The notes below the pieces were generated by a model. That model made no database searches, was not told where the DNA came from, and saw nothing but the letters and a program-made list of their open reading frames with translations. Made by a program: the position numbers and the translations under genes. Positions 1-19,603 of a stretch of DNA of 24,000 nt are shown here, piece after piece (within the stretch, counting starts at the first letter, position 1; the number at the start of each line of letters is the position of its first letter). This DNA comes from Arenicella sp. (GTDB taxonomy: Bacteria; Pseudomonadota; Gammaproteobacteria; Arenicellales; Arenicellaceae), in the NCBI GenBank assembly GCA_047629535.1, contig JBLHXJ010000001.1:41975-65974 (forward strand), written 5' to 3'.

Positions 1-1067
1 CGCTTGTAGTAATCGCAATTGTGGCGCTGGTAATCGCGCTATCGTTGTTTCCATCAGCACCCAATACCGAATTAACAGAAGTGGATAGCAGCCTCCCACC
101 AGCCGAAATTGTTCAAAAAGTTTTTGGCCCTATCCAGCCAATAAAAGCGGCTACCGATTTAGACCCTGAGAAAGTTTCTCTAGGTTCGCAATTATTCAGT
201 GACAATATACTGTCTGAAGATAATACCGTCTCCTGTGTAACTTGCCACAGTCTTGAGACCGCTGGTACTAACGGCTTGACCGTGTCGGTGGGCATTGCTG
301 GCGGCGTAAAGCACATCAATGTGCCAACCGTGTTTAATTCAGCGTTGAACTTTGTGCAATTTTGGGATGGCCGAGCAAAAACACTTGAAGAGCAGGTGAG
401 TGGCCCGGTCGAGCATCCGTTGGAGATGGGCTCTACTTGGCCCAGTGTAATTAGCCGCCTGAATGCCAATCGTAATTACCGAGAGCAATTTGCTGATCTC
501 TATACAGAAGGCGTATCAAAAGAGTCGGTTAGTCACGCGCTTGCTGAGTTTGAGCGCTCGCTAAATACACCAGATTCGCCCTTTGACCGGTATTTGAAAG
601 GTGATCTGAATGCTTTGGACGAGAAGCAATTGGCCGGTTATCAATTGTTTAAGCAGCTTGGCTGCATACGCTGTCACCAGGGGCAGGGTGTGGGCGGTAA
701 TATGTTTCAGCGAATGGGAGCTAAAAAAGACTACTTCGCTGGCCGCGATGATTTGACTGAGCACGACATGGGCCGCTTTAACGTGACCGGCGATGAGTAC
801 GATCGACATCGGTTTAAGGTCCCGAGCCTTCGTAATATTGCACTTACCGCACCGTACTTTCATGATAGTAGCGCAGCGACCCTGGAACAGGCTATCCAAA
901 CCATGGCGACCTACCAACTCGGTCGTCGCTTAAAAGATCAAGAAGAACAATTGTTAGTTAGCTTTTTAGAAAGCTTAACCGGCGAATACAAGGGCACTAA
1001 GCTAAGCCTTGGAGCCGTTTTTGAAACAGGCGCCGAGACAGGCGATCAAAACGGCAAAAAACTATGA
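1..1067 (+). CDS. Di-heme cytochrome c peroxidase / MauG-family protein (5' end probably off-window)
   Basis: The reading frame is open from the window edge. The ORF-track start at 21 is a GTG inside a hydrophobic signal-like stretch (..VVIAIVALVIALSLF) with no charged n-region, so the true start is probably upstream. Two CxxCH heme c motifs are present: CVTCH (nt 234-248) and CIRCH (nt 663-677). Family hallmarks FWDGRA, FKVPSLRNIALTAPYFHDSS and LEQAIQTMA are also present. Confidence 0.9.
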   Translation, partial: LVVIAIVALVIALSLFPSAPNTELTEVDSSLPPAEIVQKVFGPIQPIKAATDLDPEKVSLGSQLFSDNILSEDNTVSCVTCHSLETAGTNGLTVSVGIAGGVKHINVPTVFNSALNFVQFWDGRAKTLEEQVSGPVEHPLEMGSTWPSVISRLNANRNYREQFADLYTEGVSKESVSHALAEFERSLNTPDSPFDRYLKGDLNALDEKQLAGYQLFKQLGCIRCHQGQGVGGNMFQRMGAKKDYFAGRDDLTEHDMGRFNVTGDEYDRHRFKVPSLRNIALTAPYFHDSSAATLEQAIQTMATYQLGRRLKDQEEQLLVSFLESLTGEYKGTKLSLGAVFETGAETGDQNGKKL

Positions 1068-3199
1068 AAGCCCGAGCAGAATATATTATTGGTTCGGGCG
1101 TCATTTTTGTTGGCGTGCTGTTGATGGCATTCTTCTTTTGGAAGTCTGGCGCGATCGACGATACTCGTGAGCATCAGCGCTTTGTAGAAAGTGTCCGCCA
1201 TTTGCAGGCCAGCGATGCAATTCTCGATCAGCACCTTTTACGCTTGCGCAACGGCTCGGCGACTAGCGTTGATAATGTTAACCAAGAGTTAGTTGCGATC
1301 AGCCGATTGAATGCAATTATAGCTAGGCCGCCGGATTATATTTCGCCAAAAGGTACCGCGATTTTGATGGATATTTTGGCAAATTATCATCTGGTGATGG
1401 AGCGTAAGAAATTACTAATTGAGCGCTTTATGGCTGAAAATGCGAATCTTAAAACATCTATTGTGTATTATCCGATTTTGAGTCAAGAGCTGGTAGATAG
1501 CTTAGACGAGATTGAGCAAGGCCAACCTATTACCGAAAAAATACAGACGCTTTTGCGTGATATTTTATTGTTTAACCTTAATACCAACCCTGGTTTAGGT
1601 ATTTCAATTAAAAGCCAAATTGGTCGGCTCGATGCGGCTGGTCAAGCTTACCTCATAGGTGCAAACGCAACGAGCTTGAATTCGATTAGAGGAATTGAAG
1701 ATCTAAGCTTGCAGGGGCAAACGATTCTGCGGGTGAAGCCTGGAGTTGATTCGCTTATTACCGAACTAATGTCGATACCGATAACGGTTGAGCTCGAGAG
1801 CTTTGCAGACGAATACCACCGCTGGTATAGCTATGCGCTAGACAGTGCCAAGTTTTATCGTTTTTGTTTGTACTTTATGATTGTTCTGACAATCATAATT
1901 ATTTCCTGGATGATTATTCGAAACCTTAATGCCCGCATAAGGCGCGCGACCCAATCTATTGCACAACAACGCGATCAGTTAGTAGTCAAACTCGATGAGC
2001 GAAGGGCCCTATCTGAGGTGGCCATGGCGGTCAGTAGCGTTGGTGATCTGAACAAGGTATTAGATACCATATTAGCAAAGAGTCTTGAGGTGGTTGAGGT
2101 CGAAGCAAGCTCCATATTGTTGCTCGATAAAGAGAAAAATGATCTCTATTTTCATACCGTGCAGGGCCGAGTCTCTGACAATCTTAAAGATATACGCATC
2201 GCGTTAGGTCAAGGCTTGGTAGGGCATGTTGCTCAAAACGGCAAAACGGAGGTAGTTTCTGACCCTTATGCGGACCCACGTTTTAACCAACAGGTAGATA
2301 TTGCTACCGGCTTTGTTACCAAATCAATTCTGACAACACCGCTGGTAAGCCAGGATGAAATCATCGGCGTGTTACAGTTGGTAAACCGTCGGCAACAAGA
2401 GTCGTTTGATGATAACGACGTGCTACTAATTGAATCATTCGCGGTACAAGCCGGTATTGCAATCGTAAATTCGCGACTTTATTCCGACGTTAAAAATTAT
2501 GCCAACGACCTTAAAGAGTCTCTCGAAAAAGAACGAACCTTAAGAGTTCAGAAGCAGAAAATGGGTGCTTACATGCCTAAGGATGTGGTCGATCAGATAT
2601 CACGTAGCAGCGAAGAAAAAATCGCTCTTGGTGGTAAGGTAGTGCGCGCCACGATTATGTTCTCAGACATTGTTGGTTTCACCCGTTTGTCAGAACGCTT
2701 GGAACCAGAAAAAGTAGTCGATTTTTTAAATCTTTACATGACCGCGATGAGCAACATCATAGAACAAGAGGGTGGCATTGTAGATAAGTTCATTGGCGAT
2801 GGCATTATGGCCGTTTTTACTGACAGTGAAACTGAGCAGGCAATGGCGGCGGTGCAAGCGGGCTTGAGAATGCAAGCCGCGGTTCAGAGCGAACGAGAAA
2901 GCTGGGGTAGCATTGATCAAGATTTGGCTAAGGTGGAGATTCGTATTGGTATTAACTCCGGCCGAGTAATATCCGGTAATGTAGGGTCCGAACAACGAAT
3001 GGATTACACCGTGATTGGCGACAATGTAAATGTCGCAGCGCGAATCGAGCAAGCGTGTAATCCCGGCGAAGTACTTATTAGTCTATCTACTTTTGAAGAC
3101 GTCAAGCTGCGAGTTAAATCGACCGAAATGGAGCCAATTAAAGTGAAAAATCGAGATCAGGCTGTCCTAACTTATTCAGTCGACTCAGTGTTGTCTTAG
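1064..3199 (+). CDS. Membrane sensor protein: periplasmic helical domain - GAF - class III adenylate cyclase
   Basis: ATG 1064 overlaps the upstream TGA (ATGA at 1064-1067). Two predicted TM helices (aa ~8-27 and ~263-287) bracket a helical extracytoplasmic region of about 235 aa. A GAF-like region spans aa ~316-468 (nt ~2009-2467). The cyclase homology domain spans aa ~525-700 (nt ~2636-3163) and contains FSDIVGFT, DKFIGDGIMAVF and DYTVIGDNVNVAARIE (metal Asp, Asn/Arg). The Lys575/Thr648 pair suggests ATP as substrate (class IIIb-like). Confidence 0.9.
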   Translation: MKARAEYIIGSGVIFVGVLLMAFFFWKSGAIDDTREHQRFVESVRHLQASDAILDQHLLRLRNGSATSVDNVNQELVAISRLNAIIARPPDYISPKGTAILMDILANYHLVMERKKLLIERFMAENANLKTSIVYYPILSQELVDSLDEIEQGQPITEKIQTLLRDILLFNLNTNPGLGISIKSQIGRLDAAGQAYLIGANATSLNSIRGIEDLSLQGQTILRVKPGVDSLITELMSIPITVELESFADEYHRWYSYALDSAKFYRFCLYFMIVLTIIIISWMIIRNLNARIRRATQSIAQQRDQLVVKLDERRALSEVAMAVSSVGDLNKVLDTILAKSLEVVEVEASSILLLDKEKNDLYFHTVQGRVSDNLKDIRIALGQGLVGHVAQNGKTEVVSDPYADPRFNQQVDIATGFVTKSILTTPLVSQDEIIGVLQLVNRRQQESFDDNDVLLIESFAVQAGIAIVNSRLYSDVKNYANDLKESLEKERTLRVQKQKMGAYMPKDVVDQISRSSEEKIALGGKVVRATIMFSDIVGFTRLSERLEPEKVVDFLNLYMTAMSNIIEQEGGIVDKFIGDGIMAVFTDSETEQAMAAVQAGLRMQAAVQSERESWGSIDQDLAKVEIRIGINSGRVISGNVGSEQRMDYTVIGDNVNVAARIEQACNPGEVLISLSTFEDVKLRVKSTEMEPIKVKNRDQAVLTYSVDSVLS

Positions 3200-3323
3200 C
3201 GTCATGTCGTTAATGTATTTTCTTGTAGCTAAATTAAACTTAGTAATTAAGTGAAAATACTGTTAATAGCTAATTCCTACTTTAGCTTATGATAGGCCTA
3301 ACTCTATTGCTGTTGTTATCTGT

Positions 3324-4169
3324 ATGAAAACACCGAAAAGACTATTGCCGCTGATTGAAGACGGCTTGGTCGACGAAGTCCTTGGTCAACTGATGAGTGG
3401 CAAAGAAGCCACTGTGTATATGGTGCGCTGTGGCTCCGAGGTTCGTTGTGCCAAAGTGTATAAAGAAGCCGCACAGCGAAGCTTCAAAAAAGCAGTGCAA
3501 TACCAAGAAGGCCGTCGTGTGCGTAATAGCCGCCGCGGCCGGGCAATGGAAAAGGGCTCTAAGTTTGGACGCGATCAACAAGAAGAAATTTGGCAAAGTG
3601 CCGAGGTAGACGCCTTATATAAACTTGCCGCCGCTGGGGTGCGAGTGCCAGAGCCCTACGGTTGCTTCAACGGTGTGCTGTTAATGGAGTTAATTACCGA
3701 TGAAGAAGGCTACGTAGCACCGCGTCTAAACGACGTGGAACTAAGCCCAGAACGAGCGCGGCGTGACCATGCCGTGGTTATGCAAGACGTTATTAAAATG
3801 TTATGCGTTGGCCTAATTCATGGCGACTTATCTGAATTTAATGTGTTGGTTGATGAAGTTGGCCCGGTAATTATCGACCTGCCACAAGCCGTTAACGCGG
3901 CGGGTAATAACAATGCAAAAGCCATGCTCGAACGAGACGTGCGCAACATGACTAACTACTATGGCCAATTCGCACCTGAATTACTCGAGAGCGAACACGC
4001 AAAAGAAATTTGGAAGCTCTATGAAAAAGGCGACCTCAAAGCAGATACTAAGCTCACGGGCATTGTCGAAATAGATACTCGCCCAGCTAATGTCGACTCA
4101 GTAATGCTAGAAATCAAAGCGGCTTTCGAAGAACAGGAAGAGCGTTTGCAGCGATTGAGTGATGATTAG
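3324..4169 (+). CDS. RIO-type serine protein kinase/ATPase
   Basis: 281-aa ORF. It has the RIO ATP-loop motif SGKEATVY, the catalytic loop LIHGDLSEFNVL and the metal-binding IIDLPQAV. An AT-rich 124-bp upstream spacer precedes it. Confidence 0.85.
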   Translation: MKTPKRLLPLIEDGLVDEVLGQLMSGKEATVYMVRCGSEVRCAKVYKEAAQRSFKKAVQYQEGRRVRNSRRGRAMEKGSKFGRDQQEEIWQSAEVDALYKLAAAGVRVPEPYGCFNGVLLMELITDEEGYVAPRLNDVELSPERARRDHAVVMQDVIKMLCVGLIHGDLSEFNVLVDEVGPVIIDLPQAVNAAGNNNAKAMLERDVRNMTNYYGQFAPELLESEHAKEIWKLYEKGDLKADTKLTGIVEIDTRPANVDSVMLEIKAAFEEQEERLQRLSDD

Positions 4170-4183
4170 CTATAAGGCTTTGT

Positions 4184-5698
4184 TTATTTTATTGTTGATC
4201 TCTTTTCATCTGTCACCCCGATTTTGCTTCTAACAATCTCCGACTCTTGCGGGCTGAGCTCGACACTTGCATCGATTATTTTTTCAAAATGTGCTGTATC
4301 CCAAGTGTTTTCGCCACTTAAGCAATAAACATAGAGCTCGGGAAAATCTTCAATTGCCAGTTGGTCTTCGATAAAAAGCGTTTCAATTAATTTTGAATCT
4401 TCGCCTTTGCGTTTACTGTCGTAGGCCATGTTCACTGGCAGAGCGTCTTTACGACATAATACGCTGCCTTCCCATAGTCGAATATTTGAGCAATATACTT
4501 TGTTATTTTCTCGTCGGTGGATTAACCAACGAGGTAAAACTGAGGCGGCCTTATTCTGTTTTAAGGCTGATTCTAATTGCCTTGAAAGACGTGTCGGATG
4601 ATACCAATCATCGTCATCCCACTGGCAAACGAACCGGCCCTTGGCCATTTCGATCGAAAAATTGCGCAAATCACCTAGGCTTTTCTTTGCTTCGATCGGC
4701 ACAACGTGATGCCTTATTTCTTTATTATTAAGGCCCTTCAAGAACTTGTGTGTTGCCGTGTCATCAGATTCGCTAATCACGACCAGCTCTTTATGTGAAT
4801 AGCTTTGTGCCTGAAAACAATCAATAGCGCGCTCTAATAGTGCTACCCGGCCACGGGTCACGCACAAACAGGATATTAGCGGGGCTGGAGAGTTTGACGA
4901 CGACGGCTTGTCGGCCAATCTATATTTTGTTTGCTGGGCGTTAGTGGTGATGTCCTTTTGTGCAATCGAACGATAAAACGATGGTGGCCGTTCGTAATAC
5001 AGGGTTAACAGTGAGAGGTTGCGTATATAGCTCTGGGGATCAATGCCGTTAGGCTCACTTGACTGATGCCACAAATGGTAGGCAATGCCCTTAAGTGTTG
5101 CCATTTTGGTAGCAAAAAAGGCTACCCGCTTGGACATGGCGTCGTCTTCTGCACCCCAGCCTTCAAAGCGTTCATCCATACCGCCCGTCGCGTGGTAAAG
5201 TCTTCGTGTAAGGGCGAACGCTCCTCCGCAGAAGGGGGGGTATTGGCCTATCGACTGTCGGTTTGTCTGTTGCCTTGTTCTATTAATATGCAGCGATTGT
5301 GTCTGCGCTAAAAGCTGTTGTGATTCCTCCTGGCTTAGGTCAACTAAAACGTCATACGGATTGATCGCGTCTACATCGTTGTTCATTTGTTGGCAAATCT
5401 CATCTAACGCAGCTGCGCTAATGAGCATGTCTGAATCGGCGAATACCAGCCGCTCACAGCTTGCATAATTAGCGGCGATGTTCAGCCCCCAGGATTTATT
5501 GAAGCGCCCAGAATTCTCAACAAATACATACTTGATGTTAGCTTGCTGTTGGTTTTTAAATTGAGGGGTAGCGTCTTGCTCGACGAGAATTATCTCTAAG
5601 CTTCGGTCGAGGCTGAGCTGCTGTAAAAGGAAGTGTAAGTTATGTTGCCGACCTTGATCAGATTGGCGATAGGTTATTAGGTAAGAGAAGCGATACAT
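4184..5698 (-). CDS. Two-domain glycosyltransferase: N-terminal beta-1,4-galactosyltransferase-like (GT7/Glyco_transf_7C-like) + C-terminal GT2
   Basis: N-domain (aa 1-~215): ILVEQD, RFNKSWGLNIAANYA, FADSDM (DxD) and FCGGAFALTRRLYHATGGMDERFEGWGAEDDAMSKR, which parallels the beta4GalT FGGVSAL...WGWGGEDDD block. C-domain (aa ~270-504): ISCLCVTRGR, ELVVISESDD, LGDLRNFSIEMAKGRFVCQWDDDDWYHP (classic GT2). No TM segment is evident. Confidence 0.85.
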   Translation of the reverse strand: MYRFSYLITYRQSDQGRQHNLHFLLQQLSLDRSLEIILVEQDATPQFKNQQQANIKYVFVENSGRFNKSWGLNIAANYASCERLVFADSDMLISAAALDEICQQMNNDVDAINPYDVLVDLSQEESQQLLAQTQSLHINRTRQQTNRQSIGQYPPFCGGAFALTRRLYHATGGMDERFEGWGAEDDAMSKRVAFFATKMATLKGIAYHLWHQSSEPNGIDPQSYIRNLSLLTLYYERPPSFYRSIAQKDITTNAQQTKYRLADKPSSSNSPAPLISCLCVTRGRVALLERAIDCFQAQSYSHKELVVISESDDTATHKFLKGLNNKEIRHHVVPIEAKKSLGDLRNFSIEMAKGRFVCQWDDDDWYHPTRLSRQLESALKQNKAASVLPRWLIHRRENNKVYCSNIRLWEGSVLCRKDALPVNMAYDSKRKGEDSKLIETLFIEDQLAIEDFPELYVYCLSGENTWDTAHFEKIIDASVELSPQESEIVRSKIGVTDEKRSTIK

Positions 5699-5855: not shown

Positions 5856-6512
5856 ATGAAACAAGCGCCATCTCCACAAGTATTGATTGGCACGCCTGCT
5901 TACAATGGCATGCTGCATACAGACTATCTGCATTCGATTCTTGGTTTTGTAAAAAATGACATCCCGCATGCGGTGATGACCATTGGTAATGAGAGTTTGA
6001 TCACTCGGGCCAGGAATACAATTTTGGCCAGTTTCTGGGAGGCCGACACGTTTACCCATCTACTTTTCCTTGATGCTGATGTGTTTCTTGACCATCAGGG
6101 CCTTAGCCAAATGCTTAGCCATAATAAAGATGTTGTTGGCGCGCCAGTTTATCTGAAAGGCAAGAACGCAGACGGCGAACAAACCGCAAATACAGATGCC
6201 AAACTGAATGTTCTGCCGGTGCTTCAATCAGTAACTAGAGTTGGCACCGCAGCACTGCTGCTATCACGTTCGGCGGTTAATTCTTTGGTCGCCCACGCAA
6301 TCAAGCAAGATCGGACCTACAGCATAAATAAGATGCTTCGACATGAAGGGATGGCAACCACCCACTACGATGTGTTCAGAGTGGGTATCTCTAATGACGA
6401 GTATTTATCAGAAGATTTTTGGCTTTGCAAAGAATTGCGAGAGCTGGGTCACGAAATTCACGTCGACACCTCGGTATACACTCGCCATAACGGTATGGTC
6501 TGCTTCGACTAG
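5856..6512 (+). CDS. Small putative GT-A fold glycosyltransferase
   Basis: 218-aa ORF. VLIGTPAYNG opens a Rossmann-like strand. It also has SLITRARNTILASF and HLLFLDADVFL (DxD). I cannot assign a CAZy family by eye. It is divergent from the 4184-5698 gene across a 157-bp spacer. Confidence 0.65.
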   Translation: MKQAPSPQVLIGTPAYNGMLHTDYLHSILGFVKNDIPHAVMTIGNESLITRARNTILASFWEADTFTHLLFLDADVFLDHQGLSQMLSHNKDVVGAPVYLKGKNADGEQTANTDAKLNVLPVLQSVTRVGTAALLLSRSAVNSLVAHAIKQDRTYSINKMLRHEGMATTHYDVFRVGISNDEYLSEDFWLCKELRELGHEIHVDTSVYTRHNGMVCFD

Positions 6513-6634: not shown

Positions 6635-7486
6635 TTATGCCCAGCTAGACTTCGACAAGCTGAAATTAAACGCAACGTTTGAATTTGCTGGCATAGGCGT
6701 GGTTGGCATAGGCGTTGTTGGCATAGACGTGGTTGGCATAGACGTGGTTGGCATAGACGTAGACGTGGTAGTCGGTACGCCTGTAGTCGTTGGTGCAACA
6801 GTAGTCGTTGGTGCGCCTGTAGTCGTTGGTGCAACAGTAGTCGTTGGTGCCGCAGTGGTGGTTGCCACCGGCGCGCAAACTGGATCAGACGAAGAGACAG
6901 TAAATGCTCCAGTTTCACCTAAGCCACTAATGGAACCCGTAGCCGAAGTTGGCACAGTCGCGCTGTTAAGCGTTGCCGTCACTGTAAAGCCAGAGTGCAA
7001 ACCCACAACGCTTACTGCGGTGCCGTTAACAGAGCCTTTTTGAACATCAACTTCATTATTATTTAGAGTCAATGAAACGGTTGCAACGCCGGCTTCAAGT
7101 GTGAGCAGTACGCAACCGCCATTTAATACTGTAATGGGCGCTTCTTCGGCATATGCCTGACCAATGAAAATATCCAGAATATCGTTAACATCAACGCCGT
7201 CATTTTCAGCCTTGGATATCGATATGCCGCCGCCGCCGCCCATTACTACAACAGCAGCACTGGTTTGTGCATGGCTTGGAAGTATTACCGCGTCAAGTAA
7301 TGGCTTTTTCCATTTATCAGGGACTAAGCTAGTTGAAATAACCGCGCCGCCGCCAATTAAGGTATTTCTTAATACTGTACGTCTAGCATTCTTCTGCTCT
7401 ACACCAACAGCTAGCTCTTGTTGCTCAGCTGATTTAGACGAAGGTGTCGCTTCGCTACTCAATGAATCATTTGTATCTTTAGGCAT
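6635..7486 (-). CDS. Exported protein with twin-arginine-like signal and C-terminal Thr/Pro-rich mucin-like repeat tail
   Basis: The ORF is open to TTG 7549, but the first ATG is at 7486 (MPKDTND...), and using it removes the overlap with the divergent gene. ARRTVLRNTLIGGGAVISTSLV is followed by LPSHA|Q, a possible signal-peptidase site. A central region of about 130 aa is rich in Gly/Val/Thr and carries 2 Cys. The tail is APVATTTAAPTTTVAPTTTGAPTTTVAPTTTGVPTTTSTSMPTTSMPTTSMPTTPMPTTPMP (62 aa, 27 Thr), followed by ANSNVAFNFSLSKSSWA. Confidence 0.75.
   Translation of the reverse strand: MPKDTNDSLSSEATPSSKSAEQQELAVGVEQKNARRTVLRNTLIGGGAVISTSLVPDKWKKPLLDAVILPSHAQTSAAVVVMGGGGGISISKAENDGVDVNDILDIFIGQAYAEEAPITVLNGGCVLLTLEAGVATVSLTLNNNEVDVQKGSVNGTAVSVVGLHSGFTVTATLNSATVPTSATGSISGLGETGAFTVSSSDPVCAPVATTTAAPTTTVAPTTTGAPTTTVAPTTTGVPTTTSTSMPTTSMPTTSMPTTPMPTTPMPANSNVAFNFSLSKSSWA
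6689..6874 (-). repeat. In-frame coding tandem repeats (15-bp x5 and 36-bp x2) encoding the PT-rich tract
   Basis: The 15-bp units are at 6690-6704, 6705-6719, 6720-6734, 6735-6749 and 6750-6764 (ggcata[g/a][g/a]cgt[g/t]gtt; units 3 and 4 are identical). They encode MPTT(S/P). The 36-bp units at 6780-6815 and 6816-6851 match at 35 of 36 positions and encode (APTTTV/APTTTG). Confidence 0.95.
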
Positions 7487-7524: not shown

Positions 7525-7570
7525 AACCCGAATAATAATTGGCTGCCAAGGGCTATAGGTTAACTTCTAG

Positions 7571-7591
7571 GCTACTCTTTGCTAGAGTAGC
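7571..7591. promoter_or_regulatory. Perfect 8-bp inverted repeat (operator or 5'-UTR hairpin candidate)
   Basis: gctactct (7571-7578), ttgct, agagtagc (7584-7591). It lies in the 133-bp divergent spacer between the PT-protein gene and the GT32-FkbM gene, 29 nt upstream of ATG 7620. Confidence 0.3.
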
Positions 7592-7619
7592 GGGAATATC
7601 CCTCCAGCACCGATTGATT

Positions 7620-9437
7620 ATGATTCCTAAAATTATCCACCAAACTTGGAAAACCGATCAGGTTCCAGAGCAGTGGAAGGCATTTGCCCAGTCATGGAAA
7701 TCGCATCACCCCGATTGGGAGTATCGGCTGTGGAGCAACGCTGATGGCGCTGAGTTTGTCGAACATTTCTATCCTCATTTCGAACAGACATATTGGTCCT
7801 ATCGATACGATATACAGCGCGCTGATGCGATTCGCTACCTAATAATTTATCATTATGGTGGTATCTATGCCGACCTTGATTTTGAATGCCTGCAATCATT
7901 TGAGAGCCTACGTGACAATCACAAGCTGGTTATCGGCTTTGAGCCTAAGGAGCATGCGCAGGCTCAATCATTGCAAGAAGTGTTATGCAATGCGTTATTC
8001 GCGTCAAAGCCTCGGTCAAAATTTTTAAAAGCCGTTATTGATTTTTTAATAGCGGACGACACTCCGACGATTGGACTTGGGGATGTATTGAGAACCTCTG
8101 GCCCAGTGATGTTGCAGAATGTGTATGAGCAATTTAATAAAAGTGACGTAGATGCTCATCCGCCGGTCCGCTTTTACCCGTTTGAAAATAATGCCCCAGA
8201 ATTAACCCAGCTAGCCAAAAATTCGGATGAAAGTGAACGCATAAGGCAAAAACTGATAGGTTTGGGTTGTTTTGCGGTGCACCACTGGGCAAATTCATGG
8301 ACCAAAGATTTGGCCGGTGAACTGATGAATCCGAGCGCCGATTCAGTTGAGGGGTTTGATTTTTATCCGATGTATGATTCACCTGGGATGGATTTATTTA
8401 ACGGTGGTAGAGAGGTCGCAGCACTTGCAGAACGATGCAGAGCTGATTCTCAGGTAGTAGCGTTCAATACCGATGGCTTTGCAAAGCACACTATCGCCTC
8501 AATATCTGATTTGAGCGTAATGTTAAACGCGAATCAAAATGAAGGGATATATATAAAAAGACCCATCGCTAACGCTAAAGAGGTTTTAGAGCAGCACGAG
8601 AATATGCAACTGGTCTATATTGCCGCTGCTGGCCCTCGGCCATTTAGTCTGTTTGTCGATCAAACCAACGATCTAGTAATTGCTCAGTTTATTGAGAGTA
8701 ACCGCATTTGGGAGCCGCTTGAAACCGCCTTAGTCAGCAAGTTAGTATCCCCAGGCGAAAACGTAATCGACATAGGAGCCAACATTGGCTATTTCACGGT
8801 ACTTTTTTCGCAACTAGTGGGCGAACAAGGCAAAGTGCTGGCGTTCGAACCGGAAGCAAAAAATTACTCTTTATTAAAGGCCAATATATTAATTAATCGC
8901 TTAGATAATGTGGTTATTGAAAATCAAGCGCTGTCCAATACTCAGGGAGTCGCTGATCTATACTTATCTAGTTACAATAAAGGTGATCATCGACTTGGCT
9001 ACACCGCCGGCCGAGAGAAGCAACAAATTAGCAGTATTGAGCTTGACCAATACCTGTCAGGCAACGCCCTGCCGATTCATTTTATTAAATCCGATACCCA
9101 AGGTCATGAGCTTAAAGTGCTGCAGGGTATGACCAAGTTAATTGAGCGAAATAGTGCATACTTATGCTGCTTGCTGGAATTCTCTCCAGGGTTATTGATC
9201 ACTGCAGAACCTAGAGGCGTTGAAGATTTTATCGATTTCTTTGACTTATTCGAGACCGAAATATATTTGATTCAGGAGGTGGCTCGGAACGCCGAATTAG
9301 TATTAATGGATAGCGCCGCATTGCGGCAACTGGCGCGCATAATGTTGCAGCACGAAGCGCAAGACCATTCCGTCAATACTTTAATTTTTTTTAGCACTAA
9401 CGCTCGAATCAAGTATTTCGCTAAAATGGGTTGGTGA
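7620..9437 (+). CDS. Fusion protein: GT32-type glycosyltransferase (Gly_transf_sug, DXD) - unassigned ~70-aa module - FkbM-family methyltransferase
   Basis: The ORF-track start at 7539 is a TTG. ATG 7620 gives MIPKIIHQTWKT, the canonical GT32 N-terminus. RADAIRYLIIYHYGGIYADLDFECL carries the DXD. The FkbM region (nt ~8616-9398) has VIDIGANIGYFTV, LAFEPEAKNYSLLKANI and IHFIKSDTQGHELKVLQGM. Its stop overlaps the next gene. Confidence 0.85.
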   Translation: MIPKIIHQTWKTDQVPEQWKAFAQSWKSHHPDWEYRLWSNADGAEFVEHFYPHFEQTYWSYRYDIQRADAIRYLIIYHYGGIYADLDFECLQSFESLRDNHKLVIGFEPKEHAQAQSLQEVLCNALFASKPRSKFLKAVIDFLIADDTPTIGLGDVLRTSGPVMLQNVYEQFNKSDVDAHPPVRFYPFENNAPELTQLAKNSDESERIRQKLIGLGCFAVHHWANSWTKDLAGELMNPSADSVEGFDFYPMYDSPGMDLFNGGREVAALAERCRADSQVVAFNTDGFAKHTIASISDLSVMLNANQNEGIYIKRPIANAKEVLEQHENMQLVYIAAAGPRPFSLFVDQTNDLVIAQFIESNRIWEPLETALVSKLVSPGENVIDIGANIGYFTVLFSQLVGEQGKVLAFEPEAKNYSLLKANILINRLDNVVIENQALSNTQGVADLYLSSYNKGDHRLGYTAGREKQQISSIELDQYLSGNALPIHFIKSDTQGHELKVLQGMTKLIERNSAYLCCLLEFSPGLLITAEPRGVEDFIDFFDLFETEIYLIQEVARNAELVLMDSAALRQLARIMLQHEAQDHSVNTLIFFSTNARIKYFAKMGW

Positions 9438-12400
9438 GTATCAACGGTATAAAATACTATTCCATGCTTGAGTCATCCGGCTATGGACTGTCTGCGATTA
9501 GCTATTTGAATGCGTTGCTTGACCTCGAGTGCCCAATACATTGGATTCCACTGGTCTTGGGCGAGCGAGGTTACCAACCATGGTATCAATCGACATCGGC
9601 CGAGCAGCAAGTTCGCCAATTGCTGATCGAGTGTCTGACTGACGACAGTCAAATAGACAGACTGATGGCGTGTCTAGAGCCGATTAACAACTATCAATGC
9701 ATATTCATGCATACCGTGCCGGAGTATTGGCCTCATCTTAAAGAGCCCAATAAATATCAAATCGGCTATAGCGTGTGGGAGACTAGTTGCCTACCTAAGC
9801 ATTTTCCTGAGCTCATCAATCAGCTTGACCGAGTGCTAGTACCCAGCACATTTAATCGACCGATATACGAGCGTTCGGGGGTTGAGATTCCGATAGACGT
9901 GGTGCCGCATATTCTAAATAAGCCCGCGCCTGCGGCTAAGGCGACCGTCGATACTATGCGTAGCTTGATTGAGGTTGCGCCAGAAAACTACCTCTTCTAT
10001 TGCATCAATGAATGGACCGCTCGCAAGGCGCTATGGGTTTTGGTTGACGCCTATCTAAGCAGCTTTAGTGCTGATGACTCGGTGTCTTTAGTACTAAAAA
10101 CATCGGCTCGAGGCCCGCGATCGGAAACCGATGCAGACCAGTACGACACACAACTATTGGTGGCACAAATAGCTGCTGGCTATACTGCACCTGCGCATAT
10201 TAAAGTGATTAATCATAAAATCACTAACCCTGAGATCACCGCATTACACCAACTTGGCGATTGCTTTGTCTCTACCAGTCGTAGCGAAGGCTGGGGCTTG
10301 GGTATGTTTGAAGCTGCGGGAATGGGTAACCCGGTGATTGCTACCGGCTGGGGCGGGCATCTCGATTTTCTTACAGAGCAGTCGAGCTATCTGTCATCCT
10401 ATCAATTGACTCAAGTGGTGGATACTCAAGCTGAATCGTCCTACAGTAGCGAACAACAGTGGGCTCAAGTTGATCAAACAAGTATCTCTAAGCATTTAAA
10501 AACGGTGTTCGCCAATCCTCAATTAGCGCAGCAAAACGCTCAAGATTTGGCTCTAGAGCTAAATGAAAAGTATAATTCAGCACAGCTTGGTATACAGCTC
10601 TATAAAGCAATTATGGCAACTAACATCCCCAAGATTTTTCATTTTATATTCGGTTTGAAAGAACAAACTGAGCCGTTTCATCTGGCCTACTATCTTTGTT
10701 TAAAATCCTGCCTCGAGGTTAACAAGCCGAGCGCGCTACATTTTTACTATCATTACCAACCTTATGGTGAATACTGGGAGTTGATAAAACCTCACCTGAC
10801 GCTAATCGAAGTAGAGTTGGAATCTTTTGTAAAACACAATAACGCCTACCAAGATCACCAAGAAGGTCAGTTTATCAAGGCCGCTAAACTCGATTATGCG
10901 CATCAAGCGGATTTTATCCGCTTAAAAAAATTGATAGAATACGGTGGTGTTTATGCTGACATGGACACCCTATTTGTAAACCCAATACCGGATGATCTGT
11001 ATCAGCATCCGTTTGTGATAGGCCGTGAACAGAGTGTTATCGACCCCGTAAGCAAGAAAAAAAATCCGTCATTGTGCAACGCGCTGCTGATGTCCGAACC
11101 CAATTCAGAGTTCGCGCGCCAATGGCTAAAGGCTAGTTATCAATCGTTTGACGGAACCTGGAGTTCGCACTCGTGCCAGTTAGCGGCGACACTTGCAAGC
11201 GAGTTGCCCGATACGGTGCACATTGCGCCGCAACGTTTCTTCTTCAAGCACATGTGGACAAAGCCGGGTATTAGCTCGTTATTTGAAGAGCTTGATGATG
11301 ACTTCGAGCAAGTCTATAGCATGCATATGTGGAACCATCTGTGGTGGGACCAATCGAGAGTAGACTTTTCGAGTTTTCATCAAGGCTTGATCACCGAACA
11401 AAATATTATGACGGTAGATACCACTTATAATGTTATCGCCAGACAATTTTTACCAACAGCAAGTAAGGCAACAACTAGCCCAATTAACAAAGAGCCCTCT
11501 GAAAAATTGAAAAATTCATCCTCATCAATCTTGATTCCAGTAATAGAAGTTAGTTGGGAACTTTCTCAAGAGCAAGGTTCCAGCCGCTTTTCCAATACTC
11601 AAACGGGCCATTCCTTCGCCACTAACGAAACTACAAATTTAATTCTTCAACAGTGCGATGGAATTAAAAATGTTGACGCTATCATTGATTCGCTGAGTGA
11701 GCGCTTTGGTGATGATTTCGACAGTATAGGGCATGATGTTAAAACTACTTTGCGCGAACTAGCTTTGAGTGGCGCGATTCGATTTAAACAAATCACACCG
11801 GCTCTACCAGTTGTTCAGCCCACGCCGCCCGAGGCACCCTCAAAGCAGTACAAGTTGTGTATTGGCATGGCCACCTACGATGACTATGACGGTGTCTACT
11901 TTTCGGTGCAGGCGATGCGAATGTATCACCCAGAAATATTGGAGCATGTAGAGTTTTTAGTGCTCGACAACAACCCCACAGGCGTTTGCGCCGACGCGCT
12001 AAAAAACCTTGGTGATTGGATCCCAAACTATCGTTATATTGAAGGCGATAATTTCCAAGGAACCTGGTCTCGATTTTCCTTGATTAACCAAACTAACGCT
12101 CCGTATATTTTGTGTATGGATTCGCACGTGATGGTTTTACCCGGAGCGATTAAGCAACTGTTGGATTATATCGACATTCACCCCGACACACCCGACATGC
12201 TGCAAGGGCCACTAGTGGCCGATGATTTGTTTTCCTTGTCATCGCATTTTACGCCCGGCTGGGGTAGTGGCATGTATGGCAAATGGGCAACAGATTCAAG
12301 AGCGGAAGATCTCGACAACCCTGGGTTTGATATCCCAATGCAAGGGCTTGGTTTGTTTGCCTTTCGCAAAGATAGCTGGCCGCAAGTAAACTCACGCTTT

Positions 12401-13309
12401 AAAGGGTTTGGCGGCGAAGAGGGCTATGTGCATGAGAAAGTTCGGCGTGCCGGTGGGCGAACATTATGTCTACCATTTTTACGCTGGGTACACCGCTTTA
12501 ACCGACCGATGGGCACGCGCTATGCGCTCAGTTGGCATGATCGCATTCGCAACTATATGGTCGCGCATGACGAACTGGATGTTGATAATAGCGAGATGAT
12601 TGAACACTTCAATTCGTTTATAGGCGAGGCCGAAACCGCAACAATAGTTGCCGATGTTGAAGCTGAAATTAACAATCCATTCTACTTTTTTGATGCTATT
12701 TACTGTATCAACTTAGATCGACAAGAAGAACGATGGAAGACCGCACAGGCACAATTCGATAAGCTTGGCATTACCCATCGAGTTCAGCGTTTTTCCGCTA
12801 TTGAAACACCCGAAAATCACCATATAGGGTGTGCCTTGTCACACCGAGCAATTATTCAAATGGCATCGGTCAATAAGCACAAAAATGTATTGGTGTTAGA
12901 AGATGATGTGATCTTCGATGCGGCCACACTGACTGATCTTGCAAATAGCCTGGATGAGGCAAAAGCCGAAAGCTGGGATGTATTATATTTAGGTGGACAT
13001 TGTTGGGACAAGCGATATCCACTTGTAAGTGGGCGTGAACATTTAAGAGAACTGGTCAGTGGCGAAGTTGGGCCAACCACAACCCATGCGATTGTCTATG
13101 GCGATTCCAGTTATTCGCAACTGCTTAATGATCTTCCCGAGACTATCGCGCAGATGACAAGCGCCATTGATCAAGGGTGGTTAGCGATTGATCAGTATTT
13201 GGCCGTTGAGACAACGCTAAGAAAGCTGATAACCGAACCTAGAGTGGCAAGTCAGCCACCGCTTCTTATCCAAGAAGAAGATAGCTTTACACCGATACTT
13301 TCGGCATAG
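9431..13309 (+). CDS. 1292-aa multi-domain glycosyltransferase: GT4 - GT32 - PqqD-like - DxH GT-A (GT2/GT27-like) - GT25
   Basis: The start is TTG 9431 or GTG 9434, overlapping the upstream TGA (9435-9437). ATG 9464 would delete the first beta-strand IKYYS. GT4 (aa 1-~392): EX7E in SRSEGWGLGMFEAAGMGNPVIATGWGG (nt 10286-10312). GT32 (aa ~397-672): IPKIFHFIFG and ADFIRLKKLIEYGGVYADMDTLF. PqqD-like: aa ~704-786. GT-A (aa ~806-1045): FLVLDNNP, CMDSHV (nt 12119-12127), GFGGEEGY and WVHRF. GT25 (aa ~1085-1280): AIYCINLDRQEERW, GCALSHRA and VLVLEDDVIF. No TM segment is evident. Confidence 0.85.
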   Translation: MVSINGIKYYSMLESSGYGLSAISYLNALLDLECPIHWIPLVLGERGYQPWYQSTSAEQQVRQLLIECLTDDSQIDRLMACLEPINNYQCIFMHTVPEYWPHLKEPNKYQIGYSVWETSCLPKHFPELINQLDRVLVPSTFNRPIYERSGVEIPIDVVPHILNKPAPAAKATVDTMRSLIEVAPENYLFYCINEWTARKALWVLVDAYLSSFSADDSVSLVLKTSARGPRSETDADQYDTQLLVAQIAAGYTAPAHIKVINHKITNPEITALHQLGDCFVSTSRSEGWGLGMFEAAGMGNPVIATGWGGHLDFLTEQSSYLSSYQLTQVVDTQAESSYSSEQQWAQVDQTSISKHLKTVFANPQLAQQNAQDLALELNEKYNSAQLGIQLYKAIMATNIPKIFHFIFGLKEQTEPFHLAYYLCLKSCLEVNKPSALHFYYHYQPYGEYWELIKPHLTLIEVELESFVKHNNAYQDHQEGQFIKAAKLDYAHQADFIRLKKLIEYGGVYADMDTLFVNPIPDDLYQHPFVIGREQSVIDPVSKKKNPSLCNALLMSEPNSEFARQWLKASYQSFDGTWSSHSCQLAATLASELPDTVHIAPQRFFFKHMWTKPGISSLFEELDDDFEQVYSMHMWNHLWWDQSRVDFSSFHQGLITEQNIMTVDTTYNVIARQFLPTASKATTSPINKEPSEKLKNSSSSILIPVIEVSWELSQEQGSSRFSNTQTGHSFATNETTNLILQQCDGIKNVDAIIDSLSERFGDDFDSIGHDVKTTLRELALSGAIRFKQITPALPVVQPTPPEAPSKQYKLCIGMATYDDYDGVYFSVQAMRMYHPEILEHVEFLVLDNNPTGVCADALKNLGDWIPNYRYIEGDNFQGTWSRFSLINQTNAPYILCMDSHVMVLPGAIKQLLDYIDIHPDTPDMLQGPLVADDLFSLSSHFTPGWGSGMYGKWATDSRAEDLDNPGFDIPMQGLGLFAFRKDSWPQVNSRFKGFGGEEGYVHEKVRRAGGRTLCLPFLRWVHRFNRPMGTRYALSWHDRIRNYMVAHDELDVDNSEMIEHFNSFIGEAETATIVADVEAEINNPFYFFDAIYCINLDRQEERWKTAQAQFDKLGITHRVQRFSAIETPENHHIGCALSHRAIIQMASVNKHKNVLVLEDDVIFDAATLTDLANSLDEAKAESWDVLYLGGHCWDKRYPLVSGREHLRELVSGEVGPTTTHAIVYGDSSYSQLLNDLPETIAQMTSAIDQGWLAIDQYLAVETTLRKLITEPRVASQPPLLIQEEDSFTPILSA
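11540..11788 (+). other. PqqD-like (RiPP-recognition-element-like) domain embedded in the mega-glycosyltransferase
   Basis: EVSWELSQEQGSSRFSNTQTGHSFATNETTNLILQQCDGIKNVDAIIDSLSERFGDDFDSIGHDVKTTLRELALSGAIRF follows the PqqD-family pattern (x-LNetaaxIwxlxDGxxtvxeIvxxLxxxy...DVxxfLxxLxxxGli). It is flanked by Ser/Thr/Pro-rich linkers. Confidence 0.6.
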
Positions 13310-17044: not shown

Positions 17045-19603
17045 ATGATGAATAACGCCTCTGACTCAGTTCAACAAGCGCTAAAAATAGCCGAAGCCTC
17101 CGATCACAACACCATGCTGTTAGTGCTCGGAATCACTGGCCTACTTGCCTTAGCGGTGCTGGTTGTGCCATTAGCGGCCAGGCTTAAAATTCCCTTTACA
17201 GTCATGCTGGCGGCGGTTGGTGTACTCATCGGTCTGGGCTCAGAAATTATTTTGCTCGCGCCTGGACTTGGGTTTTTACATGAATTTATACAGGCACTCA
17301 ATTCTTTAGAGATCACCTCGGATGCGGTGTTCTTTGTGTTTTTGCCGGCGCTGGTATTTGAATCTGCATTAGCCATCGATGTGCGTCGCCTGTTCGACGA
17401 TATATCGCCAATTCTGATGTTGGCAATTGTTGGCCTATTGATTTCAACAGCGGTGGTTGGTTTCACCATGTCCTATATAACCCATGTTCCCTTGCTGGTG
17501 TGCTTGTTATTGGGGGCGATTGTGTCGGCAACTGACCCGGTCGCGGTAGTTGCTATTTTTAAAGACTTAGGAGCTCCGCAGCGCTTAGCAATTCTGGTAG
17601 AAGGCGAAAGCTTATTTAATGATGCTACTGCGATTGTGGTGTTCACCATTATCTCCGCTATGCTACTAGGCCAATCTGACCCGACCTTGCTTAGTGGCAT
17701 TGCCTCTTTTGTTAAAGTATTTTTTGGCGGCATTATCGTCGGCTACTTAACGGCTCGACTGATCTGCTTTTTGCTAGTGCACATTGGCGACTCCAATTTG
17801 CCGAAAATCACACTGACCATTTCTCTCGCTTACTTATCTTTCATAATCGCCGAGCATAGCCTTCATGTGTCGGGCGTTATGGCGGTGGTGACGGCGGCCT
17901 TGGTGCTCGGCTCACGCGGGCGCAGTGTGATTACTCAGAGTGCCTGGCACGGGCTCGAGGAAGTCTGGGAGCAGATCGGCTTTGTGGCTAATTCGGTGAT
18001 TTTTATTCTGGTTGGTTTAAAAGTGCCGTCGATTATGGCGGCCATGGACAGTCAACAATTTATCTGGCTAGCGGCGTTACTACTGGCTGGGTTTACTGCG
18101 CGCTTTGCGATTATCTTTGGTTTGGTACCGGTGATGAGCAAGTTTGGTTGGTCAGCGCCAGTGAGTACTGGCTACCGAGCTGTGATGTTCTGGGGTGGTC
18201 TGCGCGGCGCGGTGTCTCTGGCATTGGCATTAGCGGTTATCGAAAATGATGCTTTTGCGCCGGAAATCCAGGAATTTCTGGGCGTCATGGTGACCGGTTT
18301 CGTGCTCTTCACCTTAGCCATTAACGCCACCACCGTGCCACTTGTAATGCGCGCCTTTGGCCTTGCCAAACTCGGCCCTGCCGATGTTGCGATTCGTGAT
18401 CGAGCGTTTTCAAAAGCCATGGTTAATGTAAGCGAGCGAGTGAAAGGAACCTCGCGCGCCTTACACATTGGCGAAGAGCGAACCAATCAGGTGGTAAAAC
18501 CCTATGAGCAACTAATTCAAGCGAGTTCAAACAAAGTCGCCAGTAATAATCTAAGTGAAGATGACTGGCTGTTGATCGGCTTACGCATGATCTGCATGAA
18601 CGAAAATAAAGCCTATGCAAAGATGTTGGATCAAGGTGAGGTTTCGCCTGATACCGCGCGTAGTCTTTTCCGCCAAGCCGCTGACCTCAGTGATAGCATC
18701 AAGCATCGCGGGCTAGATGCTTATCTAGATGATTATCGCCGCAAACTCGGTTTTCACTGGCATACCAAGTTAGCAATGAAGGTACAACGGTCTTTTGGGT
18801 ATACCCGTTTGTTGGCAAATAATTTGGCCAACCGCTTTCAGGTTCTGGAGGCCGAGTGCACCGTATTACATGAACTAAAGGGCAATGTTGCTACACAACT
18901 CACCGATATGATCGGTTCTGAGGCAACCGTCAAACTGCAACAGATATTGGCTCGTCGTGACCTTGAAACAGAGCAAGCTTTAGAAGTACTTCGAGTTTGC
19001 TATCCGGAGTACGCCAAAGCACTCGAGAAAAGAGCATTGCAACAAACCGCCATGCGCTTGGAAGAGAACCAATATAAGGAAATGATGGCGAGTTCGCTGA
19101 TCAACAAAGAAGTTGCCAGCGAATTAAAAGAGGGTATGAGCGAGCGCTATCAAGAACTCCAACAAAAACTGAGCCTCGATTTGGGACTGGATGCTAAAGC
19201 GCTGGTTGCTAAAATGAATTTCTTTAAGAACTTAGATCAAAGCGCCCAGAACGATATTGCTAAATTGCTTAAACCTCGATTAGCGCTGCCGGGCGAGGTT
19301 ATTTTTGAAAAAGGAGGTCCGCCAGATGCTATGTATTTTATTTCCTCCGGCGCAAGCAGAGTTGTATTGGACCAGCACACCGTCATTATTGGTAGCGGTG
19401 ATTGTTTCGGAGAGATGGCCTTGCTGCAACAAAAGCCGCGTATTGCCAGTGTTATTTCTGATGGTTTTAGTGAGCTTTTGGTACTGCATACCAAGGACTT
19501 TAATCAGATGCTCAATAAGGATCATGCATTGCGGGAGCAGATAGAAAAAATCGCTCAGCAACGAACTATAGAGAATCAAAGCGGCCTTCCAGCTAAGCTG
19601 TAG
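17045..19603 (+). CDS. CPA1-family (NhaP-type) Na+(K+)/H+ antiporter fused to a long helical linker and a C-terminal cyclic-nucleotide-binding domain
   Basis: The exchanger core (aa ~20-440) has VSATDPVAV, ESLFNDATAIV and WGGLRGAVSLALAL. A mostly helical region of about 270 aa follows. The CNBD (nt ~19214-19530) has LPGEVIFEKGGPPDAMYFISSG and FGEMALLQQKPRIASVIS. Confidence 0.9.
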   Translation: MMNNASDSVQQALKIAEASDHNTMLLVLGITGLLALAVLVVPLAARLKIPFTVMLAAVGVLIGLGSEIILLAPGLGFLHEFIQALNSLEITSDAVFFVFLPALVFESALAIDVRRLFDDISPILMLAIVGLLISTAVVGFTMSYITHVPLLVCLLLGAIVSATDPVAVVAIFKDLGAPQRLAILVEGESLFNDATAIVVFTIISAMLLGQSDPTLLSGIASFVKVFFGGIIVGYLTARLICFLLVHIGDSNLPKITLTISLAYLSFIIAEHSLHVSGVMAVVTAALVLGSRGRSVITQSAWHGLEEVWEQIGFVANSVIFILVGLKVPSIMAAMDSQQFIWLAALLLAGFTARFAIIFGLVPVMSKFGWSAPVSTGYRAVMFWGGLRGAVSLALALAVIENDAFAPEIQEFLGVMVTGFVLFTLAINATTVPLVMRAFGLAKLGPADVAIRDRAFSKAMVNVSERVKGTSRALHIGEERTNQVVKPYEQLIQASSNKVASNNLSEDDWLLIGLRMICMNENKAYAKMLDQGEVSPDTARSLFRQAADLSDSIKHRGLDAYLDDYRRKLGFHWHTKLAMKVQRSFGYTRLLANNLANRFQVLEAECTVLHELKGNVATQLTDMIGSEATVKLQQILARRDLETEQALEVLRVCYPEYAKALEKRALQQTAMRLEENQYKEMMASSLINKEVASELKEGMSERYQELQQKLSLDLGLDAKALVAKMNFFKNLDQSAQNDIAKLLKPRLALPGEVIFEKGGPPDAMYFISSGASRVVLDQHTVIIGSGDCFGEMALLQQKPRIASVISDGFSELLVLHTKDFNQMLNKDHALREQIEKIAQQRTIENQSGLPAKL

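Follow-up and report, generated by a model that had tools for sequence, protein, structure and literature searches.

The window analysed here is a 24,000-nt stretch of the genome of Arenicella sp. (assembly GCA_047629535.1, 2.68 Mb; contig JBLHXJ010000001.1, positions 41,975-65,974). Its largest open reading frame (ORF), 9431-13309 on the plus strand, encodes a 1292-aa protein with several glycosyltransferase (GT) domains, one of which has a GT-A fold and a DxH motif. The sequence comparisons and structure models presented below suggest that this DxH domain is probably a soluble, cytoplasmic, metal-dependent and peptide-directed O-glycosyltransferase, which would initiate glycosylation of a neighbouring protein that carries a twin-arginine translocation (Tat) leader and a Pro- and Thr-rich (PT) tract. 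As judged from the modelled fold and the aligned motifs, the nearest characterised relatives of the domain are the GT27 polypeptide N-acetylgalactosaminyltransferases (GalNAc-transferases). The domain would represent, in bacteria, a new variant of the GT-A enzymes that O-glycosylate polypeptides, and this function is plausible for it. An earlier note on this DNA had named the domain the best candidate for the initiating, peptide-directed transferase. That proposal gains support, since the domain appears to be the common denominator of loci from multiple phyla that have Tat-leader poly-Thr or PTTT genes, and is the sole DxH domain of its gene cassette.

The features on which the argument depends are the following.

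9431-13309, plus strand: soluble multi-glycosyltransferase of 1292 aa with GT4, GT32-like, PqqD, DxH GT-A and GT25 domains (ORF translation, Pfam).
11597-11773, plus strand: domain like PqqD and the recognition elements (RREs) of peptides that are ribosomally synthesized and then modified post-translationally (RiPPs), directly upstream of the GT-A domain (Pfam PF05402, E 6.3e-8; NCBIfam PQQ_PqqD, E 2.7e-6).
11846-12670, plus strand: GT-A catalytic domain with DxH, spanning residues 806-1080 and founding an unnamed DxH family (Pfam PF00535, AlphaFold2 model, family search).
12119-12127, plus strand: D897-S-H899, the DxH metal/nucleotide-sugar motif (D897 at 12119-12121, H899 at 12125-12127; invariant in 244 relatives).
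12410-12421, plus strand: G994-G-E996-E997, at the position of the 'xED' or Gal/GalNAc-T motif (E997 100% and E996 97% conserved).
12485-12499, plus strand: W1019-V-H1021-R-F, with the C-terminal His ('C-His', H1021 at 12491-12493), predicted third metal ligand (W, H, R and F invariant).
12698-13306, plus strand: C-terminal GT25-like domain, probable elongating transferase (Pfam PF01755, E 4.4e-10, residues 1131-1178).
6635-7486, minus strand: predicted acceptor, exported and bearing a twin-arginine leader (ARRTVLRN...PDKWKKPLLDAVILPSHAQTS) together with an APTTT/MPTTS tract at its C-terminus (translation; leader profile E 3.2e-22).
6689-6874, minus strand: tandem DNA repeats that encode the PTTT/MPTTS tract (Tandem Repeats Finder periods 15, 18 and 36; 88-97% matches).

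Threonine-rich genes beside the DxH domain

A set of 80 loci carrying the GT domain was scanned for T-rich ORFs, defined by a 30-aa window with at least 10 Thr and at least 17 Thr plus Pro. Such ORFs were found in 35 of the 80 loci, and 37 of the 46 ORFs lie no more than 3 kb from the domain. The density of T-rich ORFs is 7-13 per 100 kb within 3 kb of the domain versus at most ~1 per 100 kb at 5-10 kb, a difference of ~15-fold. When a leader-profile search was added, the number of positive loci rose to 42 of 80. The T-rich ORFs encode proteins of 70-300 aa that begin with a twin-arginine leader (e.g., DRRxFLK), continue with a conserved P-x-K-W-x-K-P-V-V-x-x-V-V-x-P-A-H-A segment and then have runs such as TTTTTTTTTTTT or (A/G)PTTT repeats. 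Often two to four tandem paralogs lie directly upstream of the GT gene, and the arrangement is operon-like, with a T-rich gene directly upstream of the GT gene, at L046, L060, L062, L064, L066, L068, L071, L079, L080 and L082.

The T-rich loci come from several phyla and include ones in which the GT protein has neither GT25 nor PqqD. At nine T-rich-positive loci the GT protein ends right after the DxH domain, without GT25; the DxH domain is therefore the constant partner of the T-rich genes. The Arenicella genome contains exactly one T-rich ORF, 6635-7486 (minus strand), which lies inside the same cassette as the DxH domain. The same pairing is found in a cultured isolate, Halioglobus japonicus (CP019450; L002:8702-13126), in which the homolog adjoins a Tat-leader poly-Thr protein reading VTTTTTTTTTTVQPTTTGSPTTTGGPTTT. 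Two Sulfotransfer_2 genes with Pfam support, plus a third gene that looks alike, flank the H. japonicus pair; the gene content hints at sulfated products in this lineage.

Motifs and conservation of the DxH domain

Residue numbers follow the 1292-aa ORF from its TTG codon at 9431, which overlaps the stop codon of the upstream gene. Since P0006, the copy in the database, is 1281 aa long, ATG 9464 may instead be the start of the gene. Pfam assigns GT4 to residues 245-382, a GT32-like DXD sugar-binding domain to 465-569, PqqD to 723-781, Glycos_transf_2 to 813-919 and GT25 to 1131-1178. No transmembrane-like segment was found in the 1292-aa protein (maximum Kyte-Doolittle value 1.26).

Given 50 aligned sequences, AlphaFold2 modelled residues 700-1100 with a mean predicted local distance difference test (pLDDT) score of 88.7. 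In the model the fold extends from ~809 to ~1080, and PqqD forms a separate module. The earlier note had delimited the domain at 11846-12565. A GT-A domain with DxH, GGEE and VHRF is indeed present there, but the secondary structure of the model places its end ~35 residues (~100 nt) further, at approximately residue 1080 or position 12670. All of the strings that had been quoted from the domain (FLVLDNNP, YILCMDSHV, GLGLFAFRKDSW and FKGFGGEEGYVHEKVRRAGGRTLCLPFLRWVHRFNR) are found in the ORF translation. The spacing between H899 and H1021 is 122 residues with GGEE between them, as had been claimed; the equivalent spacing in GalNAc-T10 is 131.

The Pfam family Glycos_transf_2 (PF00535) matches only the N-terminal, nucleotide-binding half of the domain, residues 813-919 (E 2.8e-7, 31.1-32.4 bits with a cut-off of 23.3). 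The PF00535 model also covers GT27 enzymes and thus does not discriminate between GT2 and GT27. D820, G821, D846, D897, H899, E997, H1021, R1022 and F1023 are identical in all 244 aligned relatives, and E996 in 97% of them. The Pfam match together with this invariance places the motif set beyond chance.

The family was sought among 1.84 billion cluster representatives (50%-identity clusters). The search returned 1,734 clusters at E<=1e-3, 1,042 of them at E<=1e-30, with almost no 'twilight' neighbours. By this measure the DxH domain defines a large, sharply bounded and unnamed bacterial family. Its members are typically ~45-60% identical to the query domain over ~290 residues, and no NCBIfam model matches the domain at E<=1. 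In the GTDB collection of species genomes, 427 stretches encode a relative. The carriers belong to the Gamma-, Alpha- and Betaproteobacteria, Desulfobacterota, Acidobacteriota and others; they include Arenicellales and other Gammaproteobacteria, the sponge-symbiont Poriferihabitaceae, Beggiatoales (Thiomargarita), Desulfocapsaceae, Hyphomicrobiales and Burkholderiales, and many are Acidobacteriota of the Bryobacterales, Terriglobales and Vicinamibacterales. Within the Gammaproteobacteria the family is rare and patchy, with the GT domain present in 4 of 400 sampled genomes.

Three further observations concern individual members. A phage protein (A0A6J7WYC1 in BFVD; uncultured Caudovirales, 288 aa) is a stand-alone member of the family (Foldseek E 3e-24, target TM-score 0.84, 28% identity). 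Two metagenome-assembled genomes (MAGs) binned as Bacteroidota, L004 ('Polaribacter sp.') and L009 ('Cryomorphaceae'), have an Arenicella-type cassette that includes the PT protein, at 81% and 69% protein identity, respectively; these cassettes represent either mis-binned contigs or recent transfer. In an Arenicellales MAG, a single in-frame stop lies at codon 602 of the GT ORF (L056:9059-10927), close to the domain's C-terminal end. A sequencing error, a pseudogene or a natural gene end could each explain it.

Resemblance to GT27 polypeptide GalNAc-transferases

Foldseek comparison of the main AlphaFold2 model with the PDB gave GT27 polypeptide GalNAc-transferases for all of the best 50 matches listed (E 2e-14 to 2e-11). 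They include human T2, T10, T4, T7 and T12, mouse T1, Drosophila PGANT9 and Toxoplasma T3, at 15-18% identity. Generic GT2 proteins in a viral structure library matched the same model at 1e-9 to 1e-7, and several phage proteins labelled 'Glycosyltransferase, GlcNAc' (GT60-type) rank high among the viral fold matches. A second model, of a distant alphaproteobacterial relative (pLDDT 78.6), again placed GT27 first (E 4e-9).

At the level of sequence, a phmmer search of the PDB with the single domain sequence returned nothing at E<=10. With a hidden Markov model (HMM) of the family, GalNAc-T10 was the sole PDB chain aligned across the whole core (E 0.002), and the alignment pairs DSH with DSH, GFGGEEGY with IWGGEQYE and CLPFLRWLHRF with IPCSRVGHIYR. 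The alignment to GalNAc-T10 was reproduced by hhalign (E 1.5e-4, probability 51%). A profile of the C-terminal half had one match in the PDB, a weak one to GalNAc-T7 (E 0.35), with the same motif pairing (GGEE/GGEN). The spacing from Glu to His is 25 residues in both the domain and GalNAc-T10. In GalNAc-T10 and T7 the residue paired with H1021 is the His of ..SRVGHIY.., and the positions at -3 (Arg) and -6 (Pro) match as well. GFGGEEGY aligns with WGGEQYE and WGGENFE, but F replaces W and an invariant E replaces N or Q. The earlier note had taken best matches to ordinary GT2 enzymes, with no GT27-like metal site, as the outcome that would speak against a GT27 resemblance. That outcome was not seen; the fold matches listed are to GT27, and the motifs align with those of GalNAc-T10.

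Taujale et al. 2020 (PMC7185993) report that the replacement of DxD by DxH is restricted to GT27 and GT60, two families that O-glycosylate Ser/Thr of polypeptides directly, and they place the GT27, GT60, GT7 and chondroitin-synthase GT2 domains in one clade. In our reading, the Arenicella domain belongs in or next to this clade and shares its peptide-GT hallmark.

An inverting mechanism, argued from the invariant E997 at the 'catalytic base' position, was considered and dropped; a bacterial member of the retaining family GT60 shows FFGEE by eye. Across retaining GT-A families in general, a Glu found here has no unambiguous meaning.

Fusions to PqqD, HprK-like and other modules

Among relatives of the domain, PqqD is fused on either side of the GT domain, and one relative of 404 aa consists of the GT domain and PqqD only. 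In relatives of ~600 aa, the GT domain is fused to a domain like HprK-related kinase A. Further modules found alongside the domain are GT25, FucT_N (PF18025), a sulfotransferase (PF03567), LicD (PF04991) and a methyltransferase. With regard to RRE-type function, PqqD is fused in-protein, in both orders across relatives, and the neighbouring gene resembles one for a substrate. The RRE-Finder papers touch on RRE-glycosyltransferase (PF00535) fusions only briefly, as combinations that the known RiPP classes do not have.

Several loci extend the picture of these modules. In Alphaproteobacteria, the DxH GT is joined to an HprK-like P-loop domain (L060:5726-7573, L060:9110-10906 and L080:9011-11353; TIGR04352, E 1e-20 to 1e-25, under the trusted cut-off). 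Genes for NTP_transf_5 nucleotidyltransferases accompany these fusions (L060:11282-11977 and L080:11350-12384), and the set of HprK-like and NTP_transf_5 enzymes is otherwise seen with PqqD in clusters of the lasso-peptide type. In an Acidobacteriaceae MAG (L037:6366-7972), three tandem poly-Thr precursor genes each encode a PqqD-like domain of their own at the N-terminus (LIVEKLSDGTTAILDKDTKSVYSLNASAAAAFEAC), followed by the twin-arginine leader and the T-run. In this locus the substrate, and not the enzyme, bears the docking domain.

Remainder of the cassette and flanking genes

The other members of the cassette are the following.

4184-5698, minus strand: two-domain GT-A protein (504 aa) with DxD motifs DSD, GWGAEDD, YHLWH and WDDDDW; GT7/chondroitin-synthase-like, probable elongating enzyme (Pfam Glyco_tranf_2_2, Glyco_transf_7C, CHGN and Glycos_transf_2).
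5856-6512, plus strand: small GT-A-like protein of 218 aa (weak Pfam matches to Glyco_transf_21 and Anp1).
7539-9437, plus strand: fusion of a GT32-like (DXD sugar-binding) domain and an FkbM methyltransferase (PF04488, E 4.1e-22; PF05050, E 7.4e-17; TIGR01444, E 4.9e-29).

The cassette is syntenic in the related metagenomic locus L003, with the double GT-A, 218-aa GT, PT protein, GT32-FkbM and multi-GT genes. Its sole DxH domain is the one at residues 806-1080. Because the 504-aa neighbour has DSD, GWGAEDD and YHLWH and matches Glyco_transf_7C, it is GT7/chondroitin-synthase-like, of the kind that acts on glycans. Hydropathy revealed no transmembrane-like segments in the four GT proteins of the cassette. 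No gene for a flippase or polymerase (Wzx/Wzy), ABC exporter or polyprenyl-phosphate GT was found in the window. TatC is present in the Arenicella genome. The flanks (1064-4169 and 17045-19603) encode a DAHL-GAF-adenylate/guanylate cyclase, a bacterial RIO1-type kinase and an Na+/H+ exchanger with a C-terminal cyclic nucleotide-binding domain; they are signalling genes unrelated to the cassette, and the RIO gene is not conserved beside the cassette in L003.

Proposed function and alternative explanations

A cytoplasmic pathway can be proposed for the cassette. D897, H899 and H1021 would coordinate a divalent cation, to which the nucleotide sugar would bind by its diphosphate, and the invariant GGEE loop would line the sugar/acceptor site. 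The first sugar would be placed on Thr hydroxyls of the (A/G/M)PTT(T) tract of the protein encoded at 6635-7486 (minus strand) while this protein is still in the cytoplasm. The adjoining PqqD domain may dock the substrate, and in other lineages the HprK-like kinase domain that stands in that place may do so. The GT25, GT4, GT32-FkbM and DxD GT-A domains would extend and methylate the glycan, and the finished glycoprotein would be exported by the Tat pathway.

Several results weigh against an initiating role on the adjacent protein. About half of the loci have no T-rich or leader-bearing neighbour, and many of the contigs are short. The linkage census ran one way, outward from the GT domain, and a co-fused domain could touch the peptide instead. 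The leader is also found outside the system: a congeneric genome (G350) has five leader proteins and no GT homolog, and two other secreted proteins of the Arenicella genome carry the leader without PT repeats (G000:C26:9685-9819, minus strand; G000:C94:3325-3429, plus strand). Likeness to GT27 is marginal at the level of sequence, as seen in the identity, HMM and hhalign values given above. For the N-terminal half of the domain, profile positions 12-131, the best scores are those of the GT2 enzymes TarP (2.9e-6) and K4CP (1.8e-4). Finally, in the second, less confident model, K4CP, its best non-GT27 match, stands at rank 8, with other GT2 enzymes from rank 26, within ~2-20-fold of the GT27 E-values. 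The margin of GT27 over GT2 enzymes of the chondroitin-synthase type thus appears, in the models, to be real and not wide.

The occurrence of the leader bears on how the substrate is recognized. The shared form of the leader is RR…P-x-KW-x-KP…VLPAHAQTS, and 6 of the 400 sampled Gammaproteobacteria match the leader profile, including all 4 that have the GT domain. The idea that the leader is a GT-specific recognition signal is weakened, since it is found in a genome without the GT and on proteins that are not T-rich. From its distribution the leader appears to serve export or sorting more broadly, and not in the GT cassette alone. It is the T-rich tract, not the leader, that tracks the GT locus here.

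The alternative that survives best, and which we nevertheless regard as unlikely, is that the DxH domain elongates a glycan on the Thr-rich protein and that the bond to Thr is made by GT4, the GT32-like domain, GT25, the 218-aa GT or a transferase encoded elsewhere. The cassette contains approximately eight GT domains, and sequence fixes no order among them. GT25 is co-fused in 71 of 120 listed relatives of the DxH domain, and at some minimal loci, such as L060, a GT4 gene lies a few kb away. Against elongation, DxH domains without GT25 or PqqD occur at loci with a T-rich gene directly upstream, the 404-aa relative adds only PqqD to the domain, and the DxH motif, like the closest folds, is indicative of direct action on peptide.

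Less probable still is an ordinary GT2 enzyme that acts on polysaccharide, lipopolysaccharide or another non-protein acceptor, in which case DxH, GGEE and His would be the generic GT-A core (DxD, xED and C-His) and the PT neighbour would be coincidental. Pfam and NCBI annotate the domain as glycosyltransferase family 2, and many GT-A families share C-His and xED (PMC7185993). The earlier note had itself cautioned that many bacterial GT2 enzymes share parts of the pattern, and the caution holds in part: TarP and K4CP do best with the N-terminal half and GT2 enzymes come close in the second model, but GT27 fills the best 50 fold matches listed for the main model. Also contrary to a GT2 of this kind are the excess of T-rich Tat-leader genes close to the domain, ~15-fold and seen across phyla, with a single such gene in the Arenicella genome, the repeated fusion to peptide-handling domains, and a window that lacks a flippase, polymerase or lipid-carrier GT and whose GT proteins have no membrane anchor.

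It is very improbable that the domain is a true GT27, a retaining UDP-GalNAc:polypeptide alpha-GalNAc-transferase that bacteria gained horizontally from eukaryotes; in its favour, GT27 gives the best fold match and shares an alignment of all three catalytic motifs, but the wide and deep bacterial spread of members that are ~45-60% identical points to an old bacterial lineage, and the domain does not appear to be a GT27 member in the CAZy sense, on the grounds of 15-18% identity, the lack of Glyco_transf_7C, a ricin-type lectin and a membrane anchor, and an invariant Glu, after the conserved Glu, where GT27 has Asn or Gln. In the corresponding Pfam searches, Glyco_transf_7C (PF02709) had no match to the domain at E<=10, and there was no ricin/lectin match in the 1292-aa protein, in which the domain is flanked by PqqD and GT25.

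Comparison with known systems

The DxH domain has in common with GT27 the GT-A fold, DxH, a GGE-x motif and a C-terminal His 25 residues past the Glu, and its presumed acceptor is likewise a Thr/Pro-rich, mucin-like tract. GT27 enzymes are type II Golgi membrane proteins with a ricin-type lectin, whereas the bacterial domain is predicted to be soluble and cytoplasmic and has no lectin. It further differs from GT27 in having GFGGEE for WGGEN, with an invariant Glu for Asn/Gln, in being bacterial and in being fused into multi-GT polypeptides. By analogy, PqqD or HprK-like modules would presumably replace the lectin domain of GT27 for peptide targeting.

Gnt1 of Dictyostelium is a cytoplasmic enzyme. 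GT60 (PF11397), which comprises the Dictyostelium Gnt1/Skp1 hydroxyproline (HyPro) GlcNAc-transferase and protist polypeptide alpha-GlcNAc-transferases, shares DxH with the domain and acts directly on polypeptide (PMC7185993). Membership of the domain in GT60 was rejected: PF11397 does not match it at E<=10, and hhalign with one bacterial PF11397 protein pairs the DSH region only (probability 5.8%). A whole-genome scan with PF11397 gave a sole candidate in the Arenicella genome (G000), which did not score; real bacterial members score 1e-50 to 1e-61. One such member (L093:1330-2286 in genome G376; PF11397 members occur in 2 of the 400 sampled Gammaproteobacteria) has DSH and, by eye, FFGEE. 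A phmmer search of the PDB with one bacterial PF11397 member returned no related chain.

K4CP, a GT2 enzyme of the chondroitin-synthase type from E. coli, and GT7 are in the same GT-A clade as GT27 (PMC7185993), and like the domain they have a carboxylate after the conserved Glu. K4CP and the GT7 beta-1,4-Gal/GalNAc-transferases use DxD and glycan acceptors and are inverting, whereas the domain has DxH. Within the cassette, the true representative of this type is the neighbour gene at 4184-5698.

The glycocin S/O-GTs (SunS and ThuS), flagellin GT2, GtfA/B of serine-rich repeat proteins (SRRPs), HMW1C and EarP resemble the proposed system in the cytoplasmic, sequential glycosylation of a ribosomal product. 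None of these enzymes was among the best 50 fold matches listed or the HMM matches. The RRE-type (PqqD) domain in the DxH protein is a hallmark of leader-guided RiPP tailoring. Glycocins are short antimicrobial peptides, whereas the substrate here would be a Tat-leader protein of 70-300 aa with a poly-Thr tract. Literature searches revealed no account of a system of this kind.

Implications

If the proposed function is correct, the DxH family would define a widespread and unnamed route of bacterial protein glycosylation, based on soluble cytoplasmic GT-A enzymes, RiPP-style targeting and Tat-leader substrates. Such a route would differ from the known oligosaccharyltransferase (OTase), protein O-mannosyltransferase (PMT), SRRP, autotransporter and glycocin systems. 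Cultured carriers are available for genetics, namely Halioglobus japonicus, Desulfofustis glycolicus DSM 9705 and Desulforhopalus singaporensis DSM 12130. Glyco-engineering in laboratory E. coli could also benefit from compact, soluble enzymes that add sugars to PTTT tags.

A broader and more doubtful possibility, which we put forward tentatively, is that the family is the bacterial cytoplasmic counterpart of the GT27 and GT60 initiators, perhaps with a shared deep origin, and that PqqD- or HprK-guided enzymes produce pre-glycosylated, Tat-exported 'bacterial mucins' in at least five phyla. The peptide specificity of such enzymes without a lectin domain would become a testable question. A prokaryotic relative of the GT27/GT60 clade would likewise make the origin of mucin-type O-glycosylation testable.

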